A DNA stretch of 64,000 nucleotides from a virus, in the IMG/VR virus record IMGVR_UViG_3300023110_001943, positions 32,001-96,000 of that record; one strand, 5' to 3'. A program made the position numbers and the translations under genes. Position 1 is the first letter of the stretch. Every line of letters starts with the position of its first letter. Shown one piece after another: positions 13,438-32,128 of the stretch. The notes beneath the pieces were generated by a model. That model made no database searches. It was not told the DNA's origin and was given only the letters and a program-made list of their open reading frames with translations.

Positions 13438-13893
13438 ATGAGATGGGTACAATATTTTAGAGAACTGGCACATACAGTCAAAAAGAAATCCAAAGATGAA
13501 AACACACAAATAGGTGCTGTTATTGTTGGTAAGGATAAAGAAATTGTATCTACTGGATATAACTCTTTTCCACGAGGATTGGATGATAGTATTAAAGAAA
13601 GACAAGAACGACCTGAGAAATACTTTTGGTTCGAACATGGAGAAAGAAATGCAATCTATAATGCAGCAAGAATAGGAGTATCAACTAAAGGTTGCACAAT
13701 GTATCTAAGTTGTGGTATTCCATGTTGTGATTGTGCTCGTGGAATTATCAATGCAGGTATCACAAGAATCTTTTGTGAACGAGGTACAACTACAAAAGGA
13801 AATCATTGGGAAGAAAACTACGAAAGAAGTTGGAAGATGTTAGAAGAAGCTGGAGTAAATATTCAGTTTTATGATGATGAATTTTTAGGATAA
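13438..13893 (+). CDS. dCMP deaminase
   Basis: GAVIV, GYN, HGERNAI, PCCDC zinc motif. Confidence 0.92.
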   Translation: MRWVQYFRELAHTVKKKSKDENTQIGAVIVGKDKEIVSTGYNSFPRGLDDSIKERQERPEKYFWFEHGERNAIYNAARIGVSTKGCTMYLSCGIPCCDCARGIINAGITRIFCERGTTTKGNHWEENYERSWKMLEEAGVNIQFYDDEFLG

Positions 13894-15261: not shown

Positions 15262-15615
15262 ATGATTGCAAGAACATATTCTACCGTAGATTGGAGAAAA
15301 TATTTATTGGAAGAATCTAGTCCAAGAGTAAAAACCTTTTTAGATAGTAGAGGGCTTGAGGTATTTAATCAGATTTGTTCATCTATAAATCAAGCTGTAA
15401 TTCATAATAGAGATAAAGTAGTAATGTTAATACATCCAAATGCTGGTAATGTTATATTGATTAACCGAAGTGAGTATATGGAAGTATATAACATAGCAAT
15501 GAAATGGTTTGAAAAAAATGAACACTATGAAATGTGTTCTACACTAAAATCTTGGAAAGATAACTTAAATAGCAAAAAGAAGTTTGCTAAAGAAAATATT
15601 AAAAGTTTTATTTAG
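15262..15615 (+). CDS. Hypothetical protein with UVR-like motif
   Basis: EHYEMCSTLKSW. Confidence 0.6.
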   Translation: MIARTYSTVDWRKYLLEESSPRVKTFLDSRGLEVFNQICSSINQAVIHNRDKVVMLIHPNAGNVILINRSEYMEVYNIAMKWFEKNEHYEMCSTLKSWKDNLNSKKKFAKENIKSFI

Positions 15616-15616
15616 T

Positions 15617-15625
15617 ATATTTATA
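15617..15625 (+). promoter_or_regulatory. Putative late promoter ATATTTATA (representative of 12 intergenic copies)
   Basis: Also at 2143, 13896, 14103, 17722, 26549, 40037, 40943, 44055, 56819, 58791, 59957. Confidence 0.7.
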
Positions 15626-15648
15626 TAAAAGAAAAAAGAAGGCCAAAT

Positions 15649-17556
15649 ATGAAAGGTACATTTATATCTGCAGACTTTGTTGAAGATTCTAACGGAAATA
15701 TAAAATTCTTAGAATTCAATACAGATACAGCTGCAACTCAGGCATTATTGAGTAACAACCCTTGGGTTAATCTAATAGAACTAATAAGTGGGTCTGCACT
15801 AACAGGTCAAGAAATTACAAAGTTTCATGTAATACACAAACCTTCGGTTCATCAAAATATTGTAAATAATCTATCACAATCATTAGCAGAATCTGCATCT
15901 CATATAACAAGTTTTACGGAACATCGAGAAGAACTTGAAACAATATATCCTACCAATGTTACTGATGCTGATGATACTTTTATTTTAAGAATAGCCTATG
16001 ATGAAAACGCGATATTAGATTCTACATATTGTAAGGATGGTACTAACGCTTTACGATTGTTTAATGAAAATAATGATTTAGATTCGGCAGTACCTTATTA
16101 TTATTCAAGTTCTACTGAAATTATAAACTCACTTAACATAACTTTAAATCCAAATAATTATCCTGATTTTGCTATTAAATCAAACAACCCAACAGATTCA
16201 GTTAATTTTTTTAAAGCAGGTCCAGTATTATCAGGTAGTACTTATGTTTCATCTTCAGAGTTTACTGGTGAAAGAATATCAAATTTTACTTCAAGTTTTT
16301 TTGAAGGCCTTCAAAATGAAAATACAGTTATAATGAACTATCTGTATCCATCGGAAACCGATACCGATGGTACAGTATCTTCGCTACGAACATATCATAT
16401 TACTTATGGAAATACTTTAAGTAGTATTCATCTTGGTGGATATCGTGTGTATGCACCACTTTCATTACCAACTGGTAGTCAAATAGATTGGAACGAAAGT
16501 ACGAGTTCCATAGTTGAATTAGGTAAAAAACATTATCATGAATTTTCAACATCTAATATCAAAGAAAATGCATTTATGAAACCAGGTGTATTTGAAACAG
16601 AAAAAATAGTATCATCGAGTGGTGAAACAATTGATGTTGAATTTATATATGAAAATTATAGTGGTTCAAATATAGAACTAAAAACAATATTCATTAGTGG
16701 GTCACCTGACACAGATTCACCAAGTGAGTATCTATCTTGGTATCATGGTGGAAACGAATTACCAAGTGGTTCTTTTGTAACCTCATCTAATGTTGTAAGT
16801 GTTATACGAAATACCGCAGTAGATTTTACATTAGTTGGTATAAATATTTCAGGTAGTAGTGAAATTCAATATCTTTCACCTATTAGTAATGTACTTGTAT
16901 ATGAATCATCTTCAAATGAAACAAAGTTCTTACCAGTAAAGCAAATTAGGTCTAAAGATGAACCAGGATATTTTGCATATGGTACTGATGGTACTCTTAG
17001 AAAAATTATAGATAATGAATATATAGTTTTAAACAACAACACTACTGGTAGCTTCTATTCCGTTGATGTAGAAACTAATGATTATTATTTTGTGAGTGAT
17101 TTTGCAAGTGTAGCGTTAGGAATACACAACAACTTTTGCTTTGTTGCTGGAACGGAAGTTTTACTTTCAAATAACGATGTTAAAAATATTGAAGATTTAC
17201 AAGAAGGTGATGAAGTACTATCATTTGATGTTGAAAATAATAAAACAGCAATATCAACAGTTGGAAAGATTAGTTCACAAGAGGCAAATCAGGTAGTGAG
17301 ATTAACGATAAATAATGAAAAAGTAATAGTATGTACCCCAGAACACCCATTCTATGTAGTTGGTAAGGGGTATCAAAAGGCTAAAGATTTAGATTTTGGA
17401 TTTGATTTATTAGATTCAAACGGAAATTCTCAATTTATATCTACGGTTGAGATATTGGATGAAACTCGCATGGTGTATAATTTACATAATGTAGAACCAT
17501 ATAAAAACTTTTTTGTAGATAATTTATTAGTACATAACAAACCAGGACCAACATAA
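15649..17556 (+). CDS. Circularly permuted ATP-grasp-like domain fused to two tandem Hint domains
   Basis: DF...LEFNTD, PDFAIK, VIMNYL, LRTY; Hint1 ends YSVDVETNDYYFV...IHN; Hint2 has CFVAGT, TPEHPF and VYNL...LVHN. Confidence 0.75.
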   Translation: MKGTFISADFVEDSNGNIKFLEFNTDTAATQALLSNNPWVNLIELISGSALTGQEITKFHVIHKPSVHQNIVNNLSQSLAESASHITSFTEHREELETIYPTNVTDADDTFILRIAYDENAILDSTYCKDGTNALRLFNENNDLDSAVPYYYSSSTEIINSLNITLNPNNYPDFAIKSNNPTDSVNFFKAGPVLSGSTYVSSSEFTGERISNFTSSFFEGLQNENTVIMNYLYPSETDTDGTVSSLRTYHITYGNTLSSIHLGGYRVYAPLSLPTGSQIDWNESTSSIVELGKKHYHEFSTSNIKENAFMKPGVFETEKIVSSSGETIDVEFIYENYSGSNIELKTIFISGSPDTDSPSEYLSWYHGGNELPSGSFVTSSNVVSVIRNTAVDFTLVGINISGSSEIQYLSPISNVLVYESSSNETKFLPVKQIRSKDEPGYFAYGTDGTLRKIIDNEYIVLNNNTTGSFYSVDVETNDYYFVSDFASVALGIHNNFCFVAGTEVLLSNNDVKNIEDLQEGDEVLSFDVENNKTAISTVGKISSQEANQVVRLTINNEKVIVCTPEHPFYVVGKGYQKAKDLDFGFDLLDSNGNSQFISTVEILDETRMVYNLHNVEPYKNFFVDNLLVHNKPGPT

Positions 17557-17559
17557 GAT

Positions 17560-17715
17560 ATGACAGATTTAGAATTACAAAATAAAATATATAGAAAAAA
17601 ATTAATAGGAACATCTTCGGTTGAAGTAGAAAGAAGTATAACTGATGATAAACTATCCGCTGCTAATACTATTGTAACAAATTTATTGGGATATATTTTA
17701 GCCAAACATTCTTAA
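17560..17715 (+). CDS. Small protein (51 aa) directly downstream of the Hint protein
   Basis: Read manually: MTDLELQNKIY...LAKHS. Confidence 0.6.
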   Translation: MTDLELQNKIYRKKLIGTSSVEVERSITDDKLSAANTIVTNLLGYILAKHS

Positions 17716-17749
17716 TACTTTATATTTATATTCGTAAAGATGTTACTTT

Positions 17750-18280: not shown

Positions 18281-18942
18281 TGGCAGAGAACATTTCAAAA
18301 ACCCCACCAAGGGGTAAAATCAAATTTGATATCACATTATCAGAAGAACAAAAACATGCTAAAACGGCAATCTTATATCATCCATATAATTTTGTTTTGG
18401 GTAAAGCTGGTAGTGGTAAAACACTCCTAGCGGTACAGATTGCATTAGATATGTTTTTTACAAGACAAATAAATAAAATCATTATAACAAGACCAACAGT
18501 ATCAAATGAAGATAATGGATATCTACCAGGTTCACTTACAGAAAAGATGGAGCCTTGGTTAGTTCCAATTCGTTCTAACATGAGAAAGGTTTATAACAAA
18601 CCTGCTATATTACAAAAAATGGAATCGAATGAAGATATTGAATTAGTATCACTATCACATTTTAGAGGAAGAACATTTGATAATTCGGCGGTAATTGTAG
18701 ATGAGTTTCAAAACTTAACTAAACAACAACTTGGAATGGTGTTAGGTAGATTGGGTAAAGGTTCTACAATGATGTTATGTGGAGACCCACAGCAGATTGA
18801 TTTAAAGTTTGGTAATGATTCTGCAATACATGAAGTTCCTAAATTAAAAGGTTCTCAATATGTTTATTCTGTTAATCTTTTAGATAATCACAGACACGAA
18901 GCATTAGATGAGTTATTAAACTTATTACAACAATATGCCTAA
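18280..18942 (+). CDS. phoH: PhoH-family ATPase
   Basis: GKAGSGKT, GYLPG, RGRTF, DEFQN, GDPQQ. Confidence 0.95.
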   Translation: MAENISKTPPRGKIKFDITLSEEQKHAKTAILYHPYNFVLGKAGSGKTLLAVQIALDMFFTRQINKIIITRPTVSNEDNGYLPGSLTEKMEPWLVPIRSNMRKVYNKPAILQKMESNEDIELVSLSHFRGRTFDNSAVIVDEFQNLTKQQLGMVLGRLGKGSTMMLCGDPQQIDLKFGNDSAIHEVPKLKGSQYVYSVNLLDNHRHEALDELLNLLQQYA

Positions 18943-19558
18943 ACCAAGATTATTTATATGTGGTGATTCTTTTGTGGATTGGGATATTCCTACATACCAT
19001 TGGACTGATTATTTAAAAGAACACTATGATGTAATTATACTTGGAGAACGAGGTTCTGATAACATATCAATAATATTTCAGCTAGGAAACTTACCACAAT
19101 ATAAAGATGGTGATAGGATAATAATATATTGGTCAGACCCATCACGAATACAAAAACTTTATTGGGGAAAACATAAACCAAAAAGAAAAGGTAGATGGTG
19201 GGATTACTCTCATCTATTTGAAAAGGATAGAATACCTACTTTAGAAAAAATGAAAGTAGATAGAACTATTGGTTGGGAAACCGATGGTTTAGGTAATGAA
19301 GTGAAATTTATAAAAAAATTAAAAGATTTATTATCTCAATATAAACCAATATACGTTACCTGGAATTCTTTTTTTCATGAACATACAAAAGAGGTTACTG
19401 AATTAATTCAAGTTTCTTCTTTACAAGATGAGGTTGGTAATGGTGAAACTGTGGGAGATTGGCATCCTGGAGAAAAAGGTTGTTATGATATTTATAAAAT
19501 ACTTTTAAATAAGTTAGGTGATGAAGTGCCATTACCATTTAAAAATAATTTGTTATGA
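18935..19558 (+). CDS. SGNH/GDSL-hydrolase-like protein
   Basis: GDSF, GSDN, DWHP. Confidence 0.7.
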   Translation: MPKPRLFICGDSFVDWDIPTYHWTDYLKEHYDVIILGERGSDNISIIFQLGNLPQYKDGDRIIIYWSDPSRIQKLYWGKHKPKRKGRWWDYSHLFEKDRIPTLEKMKVDRTIGWETDGLGNEVKFIKKLKDLLSQYKPIYVTWNSFFHEHTKEVTELIQVSSLQDEVGNGETVGDWHPGEKGCYDIYKILLNKLGDEVPLPFKNNLL

Positions 19559-20175
19559 AAAGGTGTTGGTTCTTCGGTGATTCTTTTACTCGTGGTGATA
19601 TGTGTTATGAGGGTGATACTTACTACAATATGACATATCATGTAGGATGTAAAAGATGGACTGAAATTGTATCTGATTATTTAAATATGAAAGAAGAGAA
19701 TTGGGCTTGGGGAGGTAACTCCAATTTACATATACTATATGATTTGATTAGAAATGTAAATATCTTTGAAAAAAATGAGTGGGTAATTGTAGGAGATACG
19801 CGGCCAAATAGATTAATATCATTTAAAGAAAATGGTGATATACGAAATCAAATTAATGACCCACACTTTGGTTATAAAAAAGGAGATAAAGTAGTACTTG
19901 ATTATATACTTGAAGAAATTATTCCTAATGAAAAATATTATCAAGATTATTATGAAACTATGTTTTTAGAAATATTAAAATCTTTAGAAAAACGAGGGGT
20001 TAATACTTTATTTTGGAAACATACAGATTTTTGGTATCCCAACCCTAAATTAGAAAGTATTCAACAACATACTAATTATAAAATAAAAGATTTACATTAT
20101 TCTTGGAATGCTCATGCTAAAAAGGCTGAAATTATAATTTCAAAAATTAATAAAGAGGAAAAACAAATTTTATGA
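19555..20175 (+). CDS. SGNH/GDSL-hydrolase-like protein
   Basis: GDSFT, GGNSN, DLHYS. Confidence 0.7.
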   Translation: MKRCWFFGDSFTRGDMCYEGDTYYNMTYHVGCKRWTEIVSDYLNMKEENWAWGGNSNLHILYDLIRNVNIFEKNEWVIVGDTRPNRLISFKENGDIRNQINDPHFGYKKGDKVVLDYILEEIIPNEKYYQDYYETMFLEILKSLEKRGVNTLFWKHTDFWYPNPKLESIQQHTNYKIKDLHYSWNAHAKKAEIIISKINKEEKQIL

Positions 20176-20645
20176 AATTTTTAAAAATACTTTCAGAGAA
20201 ACGTTGTATAGAATATGTTAAGTATTTTGATAATTACAACTACGATGATGTACAGGTAACTGGCTCAAAAATTATTAGAAACTATCCTTTAGTTATGGAG
20301 TTATGTAAAGAATTAAAACCAATTATAGAAAAAAATATTACTTTTGATTTAGAACCAATACAAGGATGGATACGAAAGTATGTGAAGGGTAATATACTAC
20401 ATAGACATTGGGATGGTAAGGCAGATTGTGCTTTTAGTATTATGTTAAAACAATCCGATGAAAAAGAAAATCCATTACTTATATATTATGAAGATGTACC
20501 TGAAAGTATAATATTAGATGTTGGTGATGGTTATTTTTTTGAAGGAGGTACGATAGAACATGAACGACCAACCATACAATCGGATTATTTATATGGAATG
20601 TATCTTGGGTATCGAAAAATAAAAAGAGAAACAAAATTATTATGA
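20172..20645 (+). CDS. 2OG-Fe(II) oxygenase-like protein
   Basis: RKYVKGNILHRHWD...GDGYFFEG...HER. Confidence 0.7.
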   Translation: MKFLKILSEKRCIEYVKYFDNYNYDDVQVTGSKIIRNYPLVMELCKELKPIIEKNITFDLEPIQGWIRKYVKGNILHRHWDGKADCAFSIMLKQSDEKENPLLIYYEDVPESIILDVGDGYFFEGGTIEHERPTIQSDYLYGMYLGYRKIKRETKLL

Positions 20646-21667
20646 AAAATGATTTTATATGTAGTACTCCATTTAAGTATTCAGAAATAACTAACGATGG
20701 TCAGTTTTTATGTTGTCCTGGATGGTTGCCTGTAAATGTAAAAGATTCCGATAACTTTAAACAAAACTTTTATAATAAAAAATCTAAAGAAATCAGAGAA
20801 TCAATATTGGATGGTTCTTATAAATTTTGTAAAGAAAATCTTTGTCCCCATCTATCTTCATTTAACAAAGGAAATCTGCCATCTGCCTTTAAACCAAAAA
20901 CAAATCCTATATTTAAAAACCCAAAACTAAATTGGTTAACATTTGGATTTGATTTATCGTGTAATCTTGGATGTCCATCTTGTAGAAGTGAATTTATAAA
21001 CTTTGTAGGAGAACAAAGAATACAAATGGATAAGATAATGGATAATATAATAGAACAACTTGGTTCTGAATTAACAGGTCTTTCTATTTGTGGTGGAGCA
21101 GAACCTTTCTTTTCTAAAACAATGATGAGGTTTATGAGGGAGTTTGATGCAAGTAAGTTTCCTAAACTTAAAAAAATTCACCTACATACAAATGGTACTT
21201 TGTGGAATAAAAATTCATGGAAGGCAATAACACCAATTCATAAATACATCAGTACTTGTGAGATATCAATGGATGCTGGTACGAAAGAAGTTTACAATAT
21301 TGTTAGGTTAGGTGGTGATTGGGATAAGTTAATGAACAATATAGATTTTATTTTAACAATACCTACTATTAAATCAATTAGATTTTCTTTTGTAGTTCAA
21401 CAAAGAAACTATAAAGATATGGAAAACTTTTATAAACTTATTCATTTTAAGATGAAAGATAGTGATAAAACTTTTGAAATATTTTTTAATCCTATTGTAG
21501 AATGGGGAGAATTTGAACAACAAAATAATTTTAAAGAGCAAGAAATCCACAACCCATCTCATTCAGAATATTCTCAGTTCATAGAAGAATTAATGAAGGT
21601 ACATAGAAAACCAAATGTATCACATTCATTTCATGATAAAATTACTACAAAAAAAGTTTTAATTTAA
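20642..21667 (+). CDS. Radical SAM protein with N-terminal SPASM/twitch-like domain
   Basis: CNLGCPSC, GGAEPF, HTNG, ISMD; N-terminal C...CC...C cluster. Confidence 0.85.
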   Translation: MKNDFICSTPFKYSEITNDGQFLCCPGWLPVNVKDSDNFKQNFYNKKSKEIRESILDGSYKFCKENLCPHLSSFNKGNLPSAFKPKTNPIFKNPKLNWLTFGFDLSCNLGCPSCRSEFINFVGEQRIQMDKIMDNIIEQLGSELTGLSICGGAEPFFSKTMMRFMREFDASKFPKLKKIHLHTNGTLWNKNSWKAITPIHKYISTCEISMDAGTKEVYNIVRLGGDWDKLMNNIDFILTIPTIKSIRFSFVVQQRNYKDMENFYKLIHFKMKDSDKTFEIFFNPIVEWGEFEQQNNFKEQEIHNPSHSEYSQFIEELMKVHRKPNVSHSFHDKITTKKVLI

Positions 21668-22317: not shown

Positions 22318-23556
22318 ATGAAAAAAATATTTTTATTAATATCTTTGCTATTAATTGGATGTAGTAAAGAAGAGTTGATTTTTTCAAATTCTGCTGGTAT
22401 TGATATTGATGATGTAGAAGTTGAACCACCACAAGCTCCACCGCCGTTTGAAATATATGGAACATCTTTTGAAACCCATGAATATAATAATGGATATTAT
22501 AGTTTACATACAACTAAACTACCAGATGACCCATGGCTTATTGTTGGCATAACATATGTTGATTTTAATAAAGATGGTTATGTTGATATAGTTGGTAAAG
22601 ATGAATATAACCCATCTGTTTTAAAATTATACACAAATCAAGGGGATGGCACCTACGAGGTATCTATACTTCCCTCTGAAAATGGATTTCCTTTTGATGA
22701 AGTAGGACCTCGAAAGGTAATATCAGCAGATGTTAACAATGATGGTGAATTAGATATTATAGTTGGGTTAGCACCAGATGATTTTGAAAACCCAAGAGGA
22801 TTGTATATTTTTGAAAATAAAGGGAATGGTGAAAGTTTTTATGGCCATACTATAATAAGTGGAGAACATGATTGGATTCATGCTGTATCTGCGGGTGATA
22901 TAAATAACGATGGTTTTATTGATATCTTTATGGGTGGCCTGAATTATGTATTTCTTGGAAATGGAGATTTCACTTTTACTAAAAAAGATTTACCAAACTA
23001 TATCAATAATGCGGTTTCATGTGAACTTGTTGATATAAATCAAGATGGTTTACTTGATGTACTACTTGGTTCACATAAACCAAGTTATGACCCATCAGCA
23101 GTTTGGGGTAAGTTTGGAAATTCACATTCAATACATTACGGTACAGGTGATGATAATCTTTTCTCTGAGGAATATGTTTTACAATCTAATTATGATGGTA
23201 CTAACATTACACTTGATTTTACTGTTATTGATTTTGATAATGATGGTGATTTGGATTTATTTGCTAATAGTAATTTTGATTATGGCAGTAAGTATGTTAT
23301 TCAATATTATGAAAACAACGGCTACATGAATTTTATTAATAAATCTTATGATGTATTTGAAAACGAATGTAACTTAGTTCCCAATCATAATGATATTGAT
23401 TGGATTAAATTTATTGATATGGATGATGATGGTATTAAAGAACTTATGGTAGAGGCTGCTAATTGGGATAAAACAGGTGGAGAATATTTAGAACCAAATT
23501 TTAATGGTTTTCAATTAAATGAAAATGGTAAATTTATTAGAAAAATGTTTAAATAA
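22318..23556 (+). CDS. FG-GAP/VCBS-repeat lipoprotein
   Basis: Lipobox LLIGC followed by SKEE; six DxNxDGxxD-type repeats. Confidence 0.85.
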   Translation: MKKIFLLISLLLIGCSKEELIFSNSAGIDIDDVEVEPPQAPPPFEIYGTSFETHEYNNGYYSLHTTKLPDDPWLIVGITYVDFNKDGYVDIVGKDEYNPSVLKLYTNQGDGTYEVSILPSENGFPFDEVGPRKVISADVNNDGELDIIVGLAPDDFENPRGLYIFENKGNGESFYGHTIISGEHDWIHAVSAGDINNDGFIDIFMGGLNYVFLGNGDFTFTKKDLPNYINNAVSCELVDINQDGLLDVLLGSHKPSYDPSAVWGKFGNSHSIHYGTGDDNLFSEEYVLQSNYDGTNITLDFTVIDFDNDGDLDLFANSNFDYGSKYVIQYYENNGYMNFINKSYDVFENECNLVPNHNDIDWIKFIDMDDDGIKELMVEAANWDKTGGEYLEPNFNGFQLNENGKFIRKMFK

Positions 23557-23606: not shown

Positions 23607-24095
23607 ATGACAGATAAGAAAAAGATAGTTTACATCGATATGGATGGAGTCTTAGTTGACTTCGGTAAAGCAATTGATGATTGGTTTCAAAACCATCCAC
23701 ACTTAGAAGATAGATACAAAACATTTCCAGACCACATACAAGGTTTATTCAGAATAGCTCCACCAATAAAAGGAGCTATCGAAGCTGTTAAGAAACTACA
23801 TGAAAGTGGTAAGTATGAATTGTTCATTGCTACTTCTGCTCCTTGGGGTAATCCACAATCAAATACTGATAAAAGATTTTGGATAGAAGATTACTTCGGT
23901 GATATCTTTCACAAAAGAATGTTTATTACTCACAGAAAAGATTTACTGATGGGTGATTACTTAATCGATGATAGATTGAAGAATGGTGCTGGGGATTTCA
24001 AAGGTAAACTATTGAGATTTGGATACGATTGGGAAAACGATAACAAACCAAATGAGTTTCCTACTTGGGATAGTATTTTAGATTATTTATTATGA
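23607..24095 (+). CDS. 5'(3')-deoxyribonucleotidase (NT5C, HAD family)
   Basis: DMDGV, K...W, LIDDR. Confidence 0.9.
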   Translation: MTDKKKIVYIDMDGVLVDFGKAIDDWFQNHPHLEDRYKTFPDHIQGLFRIAPPIKGAIEAVKKLHESGKYELFIATSAPWGNPQSNTDKRFWIEDYFGDIFHKRMFITHRKDLLMGDYLIDDRLKNGAGDFKGKLLRFGYDWENDNKPNEFPTWDSILDYLL

Positions 24096-31111: not shown

Positions 31112-32128
31112 ATGAATACATTAGATAAACAATATCAAGATTTACTCCAATACATTTTAGAGTATGGAGTATCTAAAGAAGATAGAACTGGTACAGGTAC
31201 AATCTCTACATTCAGTAGACAAATCAGACACAACTTAAATGATGGATTCCCATTACTCACCACAAAGAAAATGGCCATTAAATCTGTAATGACCGAACTA
31301 AAATGGTTCTTAAAGGGAGATACTAACATTAAGTACTTGGTGGATAATGGATGTAACATTTGGAATGGTGATGCATATAAGAATTACGCAAGTATTGAAT
31401 GCAATCCACCACACGACCATTCATTGAGTATGATTGAATTTATTGATAAGATTAAGACCGATGATGAGTTTGCTAAAAAATGGGGTGAATTAGGTCCTAT
31501 CTATGGTAAACAATGGAGAAAATGGTCTGTTTATAACTTAGAAAAACTTATAGTTCAAGTTGACCAAATTTCAAATCTAATCAAGGAACTTAAAACAAAT
31601 CCTGATAGTAGAAGATTAATGGTATCTGCTTGGAATGTTGGTGAGTTAGATGAAATGGTTTTACCCCCTTGTCATTATGGATTCCAAGTTTATACACGAT
31701 TACTTGATTTAGATGAAAGAATTGCGTATTACAATAACAACAATGTACCTCTTGGTAAATCATCAGATTACTTCCACGAACATTTAGATGATATGGGTGT
31801 TCCTCGTAGAGTTGTTTCCCTAATGTGGAATCAACGAAGTGTAGATACATTCTTGGGATTACCATTTAATATAGCATCTTATGCTATGTTATTACACTTG
31901 ATTGCAAAAGAGGTAAATATGATACCTGGTGAAATCATTGGTAATCTTGGTGATACTCACTTGTACAAAAATCATATCGAACAAGCAGAAGAACAAATCT
32001 CACGAGAACCAAAACCACATCTACCAAAATTGAAATTGAGTAATGTGGATATTTTAAATGGTGAGTTTGATTATGAAATTTTACACTACCATTCTCACCC
32101 AACAATTAAAGCACCTTTAAGTAATTAA
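31112..32128 (+). CDS. thyA: Thymidylate synthase
   Basis: DRTGTGT, LGPIYGKQWR, LPPCH, QRSVDTFLGLPFNIASY. Confidence 0.97.
   Translation: MNTLDKQYQDLLQYILEYGVSKEDRTGTGTISTFSRQIRHNLNDGFPLLTTKKMAIKSVMTELKWFLKGDTNIKYLVDNGCNIWNGDAYKNYASIECNPPHDHSLSMIEFIDKIKTDDEFAKKWGELGPIYGKQWRKWSVYNLEKLIVQVDQISNLIKELKTNPDSRRLMVSAWNVGELDEMVLPPCHYGFQVYTRLLDLDERIAYYNNNNVPLGKSSDYFHEHLDDMGVPRRVVSLMWNQRSVDTFLGLPFNIASYAMLLHLIAKEVNMIPGEIIGNLGDTHLYKNHIEQAEEQISREPKPHLPKLKLSNVDILNGEFDYEILHYHSHPTIKAPLSN

Follow-up and report, generated by a model that had tools for sequence, protein, structure and literature searches.

A circularly permuted ATP-grasp protein with two Hint domains and a small predicted subunit in an uncultured marine T4-like phage

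We have analysed a 64,000-nucleotide stretch of viral DNA, referred to here as the window, which covers positions 32,001 to 96,000 of IMG/VR virus record IMGVR_UViG_3300023110_001943 and carries at 15649..17556 an open reading frame (ORF) encoding a protein of 635 amino acids (aa). The protein is composed of a probable circularly permuted ATP-grasp domain, a degenerate Hint domain (Hint1), an Asn-Phe dipeptide, a second Hint domain (Hint2) and a KPGPT tail, and is followed by a 51-aa ORF (17560..17715) whose product is a predicted subunit identified by synteny, alignments and complex prediction. The main gene and its parts, the 51-aa ORF, the 117-aa ORF upstream and the promoter-like motif copies, as given below by window coordinates, lie on the + strand. 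The constant unit of this protein family is the ATP-grasp-Hint1 region plus a helical protein of ~50 aa encoded downstream, as documented here by folds, conservation, a census of architectures, synteny and predicted binding. With modest confidence, we favour the reading that the two genes specify the two subunits of a phage carboxylate-amine ligase, whose precursor would process itself, with Hint2 removing itself and Asn-Phe being a linker; the ligase activity and all chemical steps are what we infer from these observations.

Results

Source of the sequence

The IMG/VR record of the source virus is 141 kb in length and estimated to be 76% complete. The window has a G+C content of ~30%, almost every gene on the + strand, two tRNA clusters and genes for T4-like baseplate-wedge, helicase, PhoH and carbamoyltransferase proteins. 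The source is an uncultured marine T4-like phage.

The N-terminal domain resembles circularly permuted ATP-grasp ligases

Fold searches assign residues 1-310 (15649..16578) to the circularly permuted ATP-grasp ligases of the glutathione synthetase/glutathionylspermidine synthetase (GspS) class. An AlphaFold2 (AF2) model of residues 1-316, built from 63 homologues (predicted local distance difference test score (pLDDT) 86, predicted template modelling score 0.84), returned 30 significant matches when compared with the PDB by Foldseek, every one of them a circularly permuted ATP-grasp ligase. The matches comprise eukaryotic (human, yeast and plant) glutathione synthetases, GspS and trypanothione synthetases, YgiC/YjfC and Mfla_0391, with E-values of 1.5e-5 to 1e-3 and a probability of 1.0 for glutathione synthetase, GspS and YgiC. 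VIA-align, which works independently of Foldseek, placed permuted enzymes at ranks 1-10 (Z 7.8-9.9 over model residues 1-304; 194-237 residues aligned with a root-mean-square deviation of 3.9-4.9), among them the fungal amide ligase Cp1B, which acts in E-64 biosynthesis (PMC12568646). In this comparison the permuted enzymes align with the domain from residue 1-3, whereas alignment to non-permuted ATP-grasps (LysX/ArgX, RimK, TTLL, Ddl and PurK) starts at approximately residue 55 with Z of 4-6.6, a difference which is the signature of circular permutation. A shape search of the ESM-Atlas agrees, with template modelling (TM) scores of 0.54-0.58 to glutathione synthetase and CP_ATPgrasp clusters.

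In 232 family sequences, purifying selection is seen on a charged core in which D9 (231), E22 (229), N24 (229), T25 (231), R114 (230), Y117 (231), D124 (232) and K177 (226) are near-invariant, as are P172 and K64, and in which the nearly invariant E22-x-N24 motif sits at the N-terminus. Such conservation points to a working enzyme. From these residues one would expect it to bind ATP/Mg and to act as an acyl-phosphate ligase, and individual residues beyond the E-x-N motif can be given presumptive roles. Residues 1-496 matched no Pfam, PHROG or NCBIfam model, the Pfam models GSH_synth_ATP, GSP_synth and CP_ATPgrasp_1/2 matched none of 29 members at E-values up to 1, a phmmer search of PDB sequences with the N-terminal domain gave insignificant matches only (PafA, E 0.23), and a BFVD fold search with this domain returned none at E up to 0.001. 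By predicted fold, the N-terminal domain is probably a circularly permuted ATP-grasp of the glutathione synthetase/GspS class.

Hint1 has lost the N-terminal but not the C-terminal reaction residues

Residues 313-494 (16585..17130) form Hint1, recognized as a degenerate Hint fold by its model, fold search, hhalign and conservation. The model of residues 301-500 (pLDDT 87.7) matched bacterial intein-like (BIL) domains, mini-inteins and Hedgehog with E-values of 1e-8 to 1e-5 and target TM of 0.7-0.83 (Foldseek). Alignment of the Hint1 and Hint2 profiles by hhalign (E 5.6e-6) paired G313 with C497, S410/S413 with T563/H566 and H493-N494 with H629-N630, and exposed a conserved insert of ~40 residues between blocks A and B of Hint1 (residues ~345-385; 16681..16803) that is absent from Hint2. 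The insert has the pattern SGSPDTD..EY..W..G..LPSGS..TSS, with W364, G368, S375 and S380 near-invariant.

Position 1 of Hint1 is Gly in 192 of the 232 sequences, His in 10, Asp in 9, Ala in 4 and Val in 3, and Cys, Ser and Thr are never among the residues listed. The TxxH motif is missing and the columns aligned with it (S410, S413) vary through the family. With neither the Cys1 nucleophile nor TxxH, Hint1 should be unable to form an N-terminal thioester. Block F residues E475 and D478 are kept, and the terminal HN is found in 209 of 210 complete family members. Judged by these residues, Hint1 retains what inteins need for C-terminal Asn cyclisation.

Hint2 is an intact type-A BIL-like Hint

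A linker of two residues, N495-F496 (17131..17136), joins the HN of Hint1 to Cys1 of Hint2 (residues 497-630; 17137..17538). Hint2 is matched by Pfam PT-HINT (1.8e-17) and Intein_splicing (6e-13), and its best matches among PDB sequences (E ~1e-23) are BIL2 of Tetrahymena BUBL (6tmm/6y75) and a Clostridium thermocellum BIL (2lwy). It contains C497, T563-P-E-H566 and H629-N630, residues conserved in every family member that has Hint2, followed by the tail K631-PGPT (17539..17553), in which the +1 residue is Lys. Type-A BILs are defined by Cys1, TxxH and HN without a +1 nucleophile, and undergo cleavage or amine-mediated ligation to Lys or an alpha-amine (PMC4031507); for BIL2, the depositors report isopeptide formation to the epsilon-amine of Lys (PMC8616854). 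Having no Cys, Ser or Thr at +1, Hint2 falls outside the canonical inteins, and by its sequence signature it is an intact type-A BIL-like Hint. The residue following the last HN is Lys in 160 and Arg in 13 of 183 scored proteins, and Lys is the C-terminal residue of the protein in 127 of 210. No C-terminal toxin domain is present, as merely five residues follow Hint2.

A small protein encoded downstream is a predicted subunit

An ORF of 46-53 aa lies behind the main gene in all loci inspected. A homologue of the partner was found in 50 of 51 non-redundant IMG/VR loci. Of the 50 loci whose main gene is complete, 47 have the small ORF beginning no more than 80 nucleotides (nt) after its stop codon, each of them a match to the family profile. 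The frame of the small ORF relative to the large one differs between loci, and hence it is a separate gene; read-through of the stop codon was rejected, as the two share a frame in some loci only.

Complex prediction for the 635-aa and 51-aa proteins gave a score of 0.80 in each of three runs, while the best of three controls scored 0.00. In a benchmark, 58 of 80 solved complexes scored this high, as did 2 of 110 mismatched pairs; these counts hold only roughly here since the prediction used its own alignments. The runs had at least 93% of contacts in common and partner pLDDT was at least 88. The predicted interface involves residues 8-20, 123-146 and 236-272 of the ATP-grasp domain and 393-408, 430-436 and 455-467 of Hint1. 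The small protein thus looks like a subunit which, in the predicted complex, ties the ATP-grasp domain to Hint1. Of two other proposals for the partner, that of its C-terminal K-H-S as the end of a ligase substrate was weakened by loss of the motif in distant members, and a faint Pfam match to a 'head completion protein' (E 0.04) was rejected as chance, the ORF belonging to its own conserved family.

Much of what the first-pass annotation had proposed from the sequence was borne out by these analyses. The folds assigned to residues 1-312, 313-494 and 497-630 (ATP-grasp, Hint and Hint, respectively) were upheld, and the permuted order of the ATP-grasp motifs agrees with the AF2 fold, Foldseek, VIA-align and the ESM-Atlas. 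The description of Hint1, with Gly for Cys1, no TxxH and retained block F and HN, was confirmed by model, hhalign and family conservation, and that of Hint2 as intact (C497, TPEH, HN630) by Pfam, PDB matches and family conservation. The statement that Lys at +1 excludes canonical splicing is supported by Lys or Arg at this position in 173 of 183 proteins, and the 51-aa partner ORF by its conservation in 50 of 51 loci.

Spacer and cargo vary while the core is constant

The 635-aa protein has >265 full-length homologues. A search of 1.84 billion representatives with the N-terminal domain gave 205 clusters (50% identity), in which the ATP-grasp domain always begins at residue 1, and 113 IMG/VR loci encode the family, which is widespread in uncultured marine phages. 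A tblastn search of 50,697 phage records matched the Hint part alone (Ruminococcus phages) with no relative of the N-terminal domain, megablast of 10 kb detected tRNA matches alone, and PHROGs contained Hint-related families alone.

What follows the HN of Hint1 is variable. The 210 complete proteins carry one BIL-Hint (123), two (64), three (1), a short Lys-containing tail (12) or other cargo (10), such that a Cys1-type Hint is missing from ~10% of complete members. The Hint-less forms are complete genes within phage contigs, with the small ORF still behind them, and make up sizeable Atlas clusters. Their tails (K, KPKQPKK, AKSY and YKLKPQF) are similar to a long-form spacer followed by the K-tail, and BIL-Hints therefore look like optional modules inserted before a conserved Lys. 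On a FastTree phylogeny of the ATP-grasp-Hint1 core (164 sequences), the state of one versus two or more BIL-Hints changes 24 times, at least 15 of these forced by well-supported branches, compared with 46-48 changes for shuffled labels; tail-only forms account for 7 changes, at least 5 of them forced.

Several forms of other cargo were observed. In P0249, P0254, P0255, P0257, P0261, P0241 and P0227, Cys-rich peptides of 30-60 aa stand straight after the HN of Hint1 in place of the BIL-Hint. The tails of P0168 and P0252 have below-threshold matches to Peptidase_S74, a tail-fibre chaperone (E 0.0035 and 0.0065), which are suggestive only.

The spacer between the HN of Hint1 and the Cys of the following Hint also varies. 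In the 188 proteins where a Cys1-Hint follows Hint1, it ranges from 0 to >12 residues, with lengths of 0 in 30, 1 in 13, 2 in 100, 3 in 11 and longer in the rest; it is Ala-Pro in 76, and Asn-Phe occurs solely in the source phage and a 99% identical twin. The proposal of the first-pass annotation that the purpose of the two Hints is to generate an activated Asn-Phe mini-peptide is not supported by this census, as the spacer is conserved in neither length nor sequence among the homologues. With a spacer of 0, Asn cyclisation by Hint1 and the acyl shift of Hint2 would both take place at a single Asn-Cys bond, so that no peptide could be formed. In view of such members, an activated dipeptide cannot be the conserved purpose of the architecture.

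Flanking genes and a candidate promoter element

The gene pair is flanked by two copies of the motif TATATTTATAT. One (15616..15626) begins 33 nt before the ATG of the main ORF and the next (17721..17731) closes the two-gene unit. The exact 11-mer occurs on the + strand of the window at 2142, 15616, 17721, 40942, 44054, 56818 and 59956, and lies 29-39 nt 5' of the ATGs at 15649, 17750, 40974, 44089 and 56857, with some of the genes so preceded belonging to the structural/baseplate region. Allowing one mismatch, 30 matches were found where 15.7 are expected, a number reached by no shuffle. The word TATAAATA of T4 late promoters is contained in the reverse complement of TATATTTATAT; read in its sense orientation, the motif is not this word. 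By its sequence and placement, TATATTTATAT is a candidate phage-specific promoter element. The 'late-type promoter' originally assigned to the main gene stands insofar as a recurrent phage-specific motif precedes ATGs, whereas 'late' is an inferred label. Sigma-70 promoters and terminators are not enriched around the main ORF.

Immediately upstream, 15262..15615 encodes a 117-aa protein which alignment places in a virus-only family, its nearest Atlas clusters being all viral and all unnamed. When same-strand genes up to 8 kb away were counted in the 51 non-redundant loci, a homologue of this protein was detected in 15, PhoH in 10, a radical S-adenosylmethionine (SAM) enzyme in 24 and SGNH-like proteins of 206 and 207 aa in 37 and 30, respectively.

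The 207- and 206-aa proteins are encoded in the window by adjoining paralogous genes (18935-19558 and 19555-20175) whose family consensus contains the SGNH/GDSL blocks FGDSF, G, GxxN and DxH. Neither Pfam nor NCBIfam matches them, a profile search of PDB sequences was empty, and the motif pattern is the sole support for the SGNH label. The radical SAM enzyme of the window (341 aa; 20642-21667) passes Pfam narrowly at 2.5e-7 and is most like the twitch-domain/SPASM peptide-maturase types of NCBIfam, all below cutoff. These neighbours may keep a reading in terms of peptide or protein modification alive, with none of them constant. A 'GNAT' label given to a 176-aa gene is supported by neither Pfam nor NCBIfam. 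The region is also flanked by genes for an FG-GAP repeat protein (5e-29; 22318-23556), an NT5C-type 5'-nucleotidase (23607-24095) and a dCMP deaminase (13438-13893), all of which recur near homologues in other phages.

A further Hint-type domain was observed outside the window, near residue 1840-1970 of a 2221-aa ORF (G000:C1:98283-104948; L012:1284-7949). It has no Cys1, keeps TxxH as TSENH, ends in SHN|P and is followed by a C-terminal domain of ~250 aa. The product of this ORF is probably a large structural protein which sheds its C-terminal domain by self-cleavage.

Discussion

In the explanation we consider most probable, the 635-aa protein is the large subunit of a phage carboxylate-amine ligase with two subunits and is made as a precursor that processes itself. 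The ~50-aa protein would be placed between the ATP-grasp domain and Hint1, as predicted, and N494 of Hint1 would be able to sever whatever is downstream. The cargo after the HN of Hint1 would differ between phages, being in this case one intact type-A BIL-like Hint before the conserved tail Lys. Hint2 would form a thioester at F496-C497 and cyclise N630, thereby excising itself either by plain cleavage or by amine-mediated ligation, to Lys or an alpha-amine, as in type-A BILs. Asn-Phe would be a junction linker and not a product.

Several points weigh against this explanation. The catalytic residues of Hint2 are strongly kept without a homing endonuclease, which is hard to square with mere self-removal from a C-terminal tail, and both the near-universal Lys or Arg at +1 and the conserved 40-residue insert of Hint1 are left unexplained. 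In addition, the ATP-grasp assignment is one of moderate fold similarity (TM 0.35-0.58, Z up to 9.9) with no sequence model, and the complex is a predicted model, so that subunit binding rests on prediction.

The strongest alternative, although one we hold to be rather unlikely, is that Hint2 serves as a conjugation platform, its thioester being resolved by a specific amine, either the +1 Lys in cis or a virion or host Lys in trans, which would anchor the enzyme covalently. Such chemistry has precedents in Tetrahymena BIL2, which conjugates ubl4, and in Hedgehog, which is joined to cholesterol, and among solved structures BUBL BIL2, for which a Lys isopeptide is reported (PMC8616854), comes nearest to Hint2 in sequence as well as in structure. 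Selection on the catalytic residues, the predominance of Lys or Arg after the last HN (173 of 183) and a promoter motif common to genes of the structural module are consistent with this proposal. However, approximately 10% of the family functions without any Cys1-Hint, many inner junctions have Arg, a poor nucleophile, in place of Lys, no target is evident, and distant members have lost the conserved Lys of the small partner.

Less likely again is release of a peptide in the manner of ribosomally synthesized and post-translationally modified peptides. Here Hint1, acting as an Asn-lyase, would free a C-terminal cargo peptide which the ATP-grasp domain and neighbouring enzymes (radical SAM, SGNH-like, 2-oxoglutarate (2OG) oxygenases) would modify or ligate, the BIL-Hint of the source phage replacing or interrupting the cargo. 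The members with Cys-rich peptides of 30-60 aa right after the HN of Hint1 would suit this scheme, as would radical SAM enzymes near 24 and SGNH-like proteins near 37 of the 51 loci and the resemblance, below cutoff, of the radical SAM enzyme in the window to twitch/SPASM types. Yet the only peptides available in the window are NF and KPGPT, most members end in HN-K, no core peptide is conserved, and radical SAM, 2OG and SGNH genes are common across such phage regions and are not constant neighbours.

We give slightly less weight still to the idea that both Hints are purely structural and that the protein acts uncleaved. In favour of this idea, two of the three catalytic blocks are gone from Hint1, and Hint1 contributes to the interface predicted for the small subunit, but retention of C1, TxxH and HN in Hint2 and of HN in Hint1 over ~200 diverged sequences is hard to explain without catalysis. 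The original dipeptide model, in which Hint1 frees the amine of Asn495, Hint2 converts Phe496 to a thioester and the ATP-grasp domain ligates Asn-Phe onto a target, is very improbable, for while the residues for both reactions are present and a length of two residues is more frequent than any other (100 of 188), the spacer is 0 in 30 and 1 or at least 3 in 58 and unconserved in sequence with NF unique, Hint2 is optional, being without a Cys1-Hint counterpart in ~10% of members and changing in number at least 24 times on the core tree, the output would be stoichiometric at one dipeptide per 635-aa protein, and an amino-dipeptidyl thioester would tend toward spontaneous cyclisation.

Beyond the self-processing ligase, we raise as a speculative proposal, of rather low likelihood, that the system is a self-contained phage machine for modification of proteins or peptides, in which activated or freed termini would come from Hint chemistry, with no need of E1/E2-type enzymes. 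The Asn-lyase of Hint1 and the thioester of a BIL-Hint would feed the attached ATP-grasp ligase and its small subunit, and the outcome could be covalent anchoring to a virion or host Lys, or release of a cargo peptide and its ligation or cyclisation, for example of the Cys-rich tails.

Each of the domain types is known, but their combination, a minimal permuted ATP-grasp, an HN-only Hint, optional stacked BIL-Hints and an obligatory 50-aa partner, was found in no paper and in none of the entries of Pfam, PHROG, NCBIfam, INPHARED or BFVD. The family provides a natural series on how Hint domains lose or keep single catalytic steps, might yield new self-cleaving or ligating tags with a tolerance for Lys at +1, and contains a putative phage ligase whose substrate may expose a new virus-host interaction.

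Comparison with known systems

In pretoxin-HINT and Hedgehog/Hog proteins, a Hint domain likewise divides a constant N-terminal from a variable C-terminal part and cleavage is expected. The phage protein differs in having no toxin or signalling domain and in that its constant part is an enzyme. Hint1 is without the thioester-forming residues on which Hedgehog and PT-HINT depend, whereas Hedgehog is not known to have the HN which Hint1 keeps. The family shares with canonical mini-inteins the fold, Cys1, TxxH and HN; its BIL-Hints are likewise placed in the manner of insertions and come and go repeatedly on the host-protein tree. In contrast to mini-inteins, Lys or Arg at +1 bars standard transesterification, there is no homing endonuclease, and the 'C-extein' is often a single Lys.

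The type-A BILs (2lwy; 6y75/6tmm) are closest to Hint2 by sequence and structure and share with it Cys1, TxxH, HN and a +1 position that is not Cys, Ser or Thr. Unlike these BILs, Hint2 ends a phage ATP-grasp enzyme, with 1-7 residues after it and a degenerate Hint before it, and the BIL-Hints of the family occur in arrays of one to three without ubiquitin-like or secreted-protein flanks. Finally, the N-terminal domain has in common with the circularly permuted ATP-grasp ligases (glutathione synthetase, GspS, YgiC/YjfC, CP_ATPgrasp and Cp1B) a fold in which the E-x-N strand pair comes first. Unlike those ligases, the phage domain has no Pfam or NCBIfam ATP-grasp match, spans only ~310 residues, is fused to Hint domains and is predicted to bind a separate subunit of ~50 aa.

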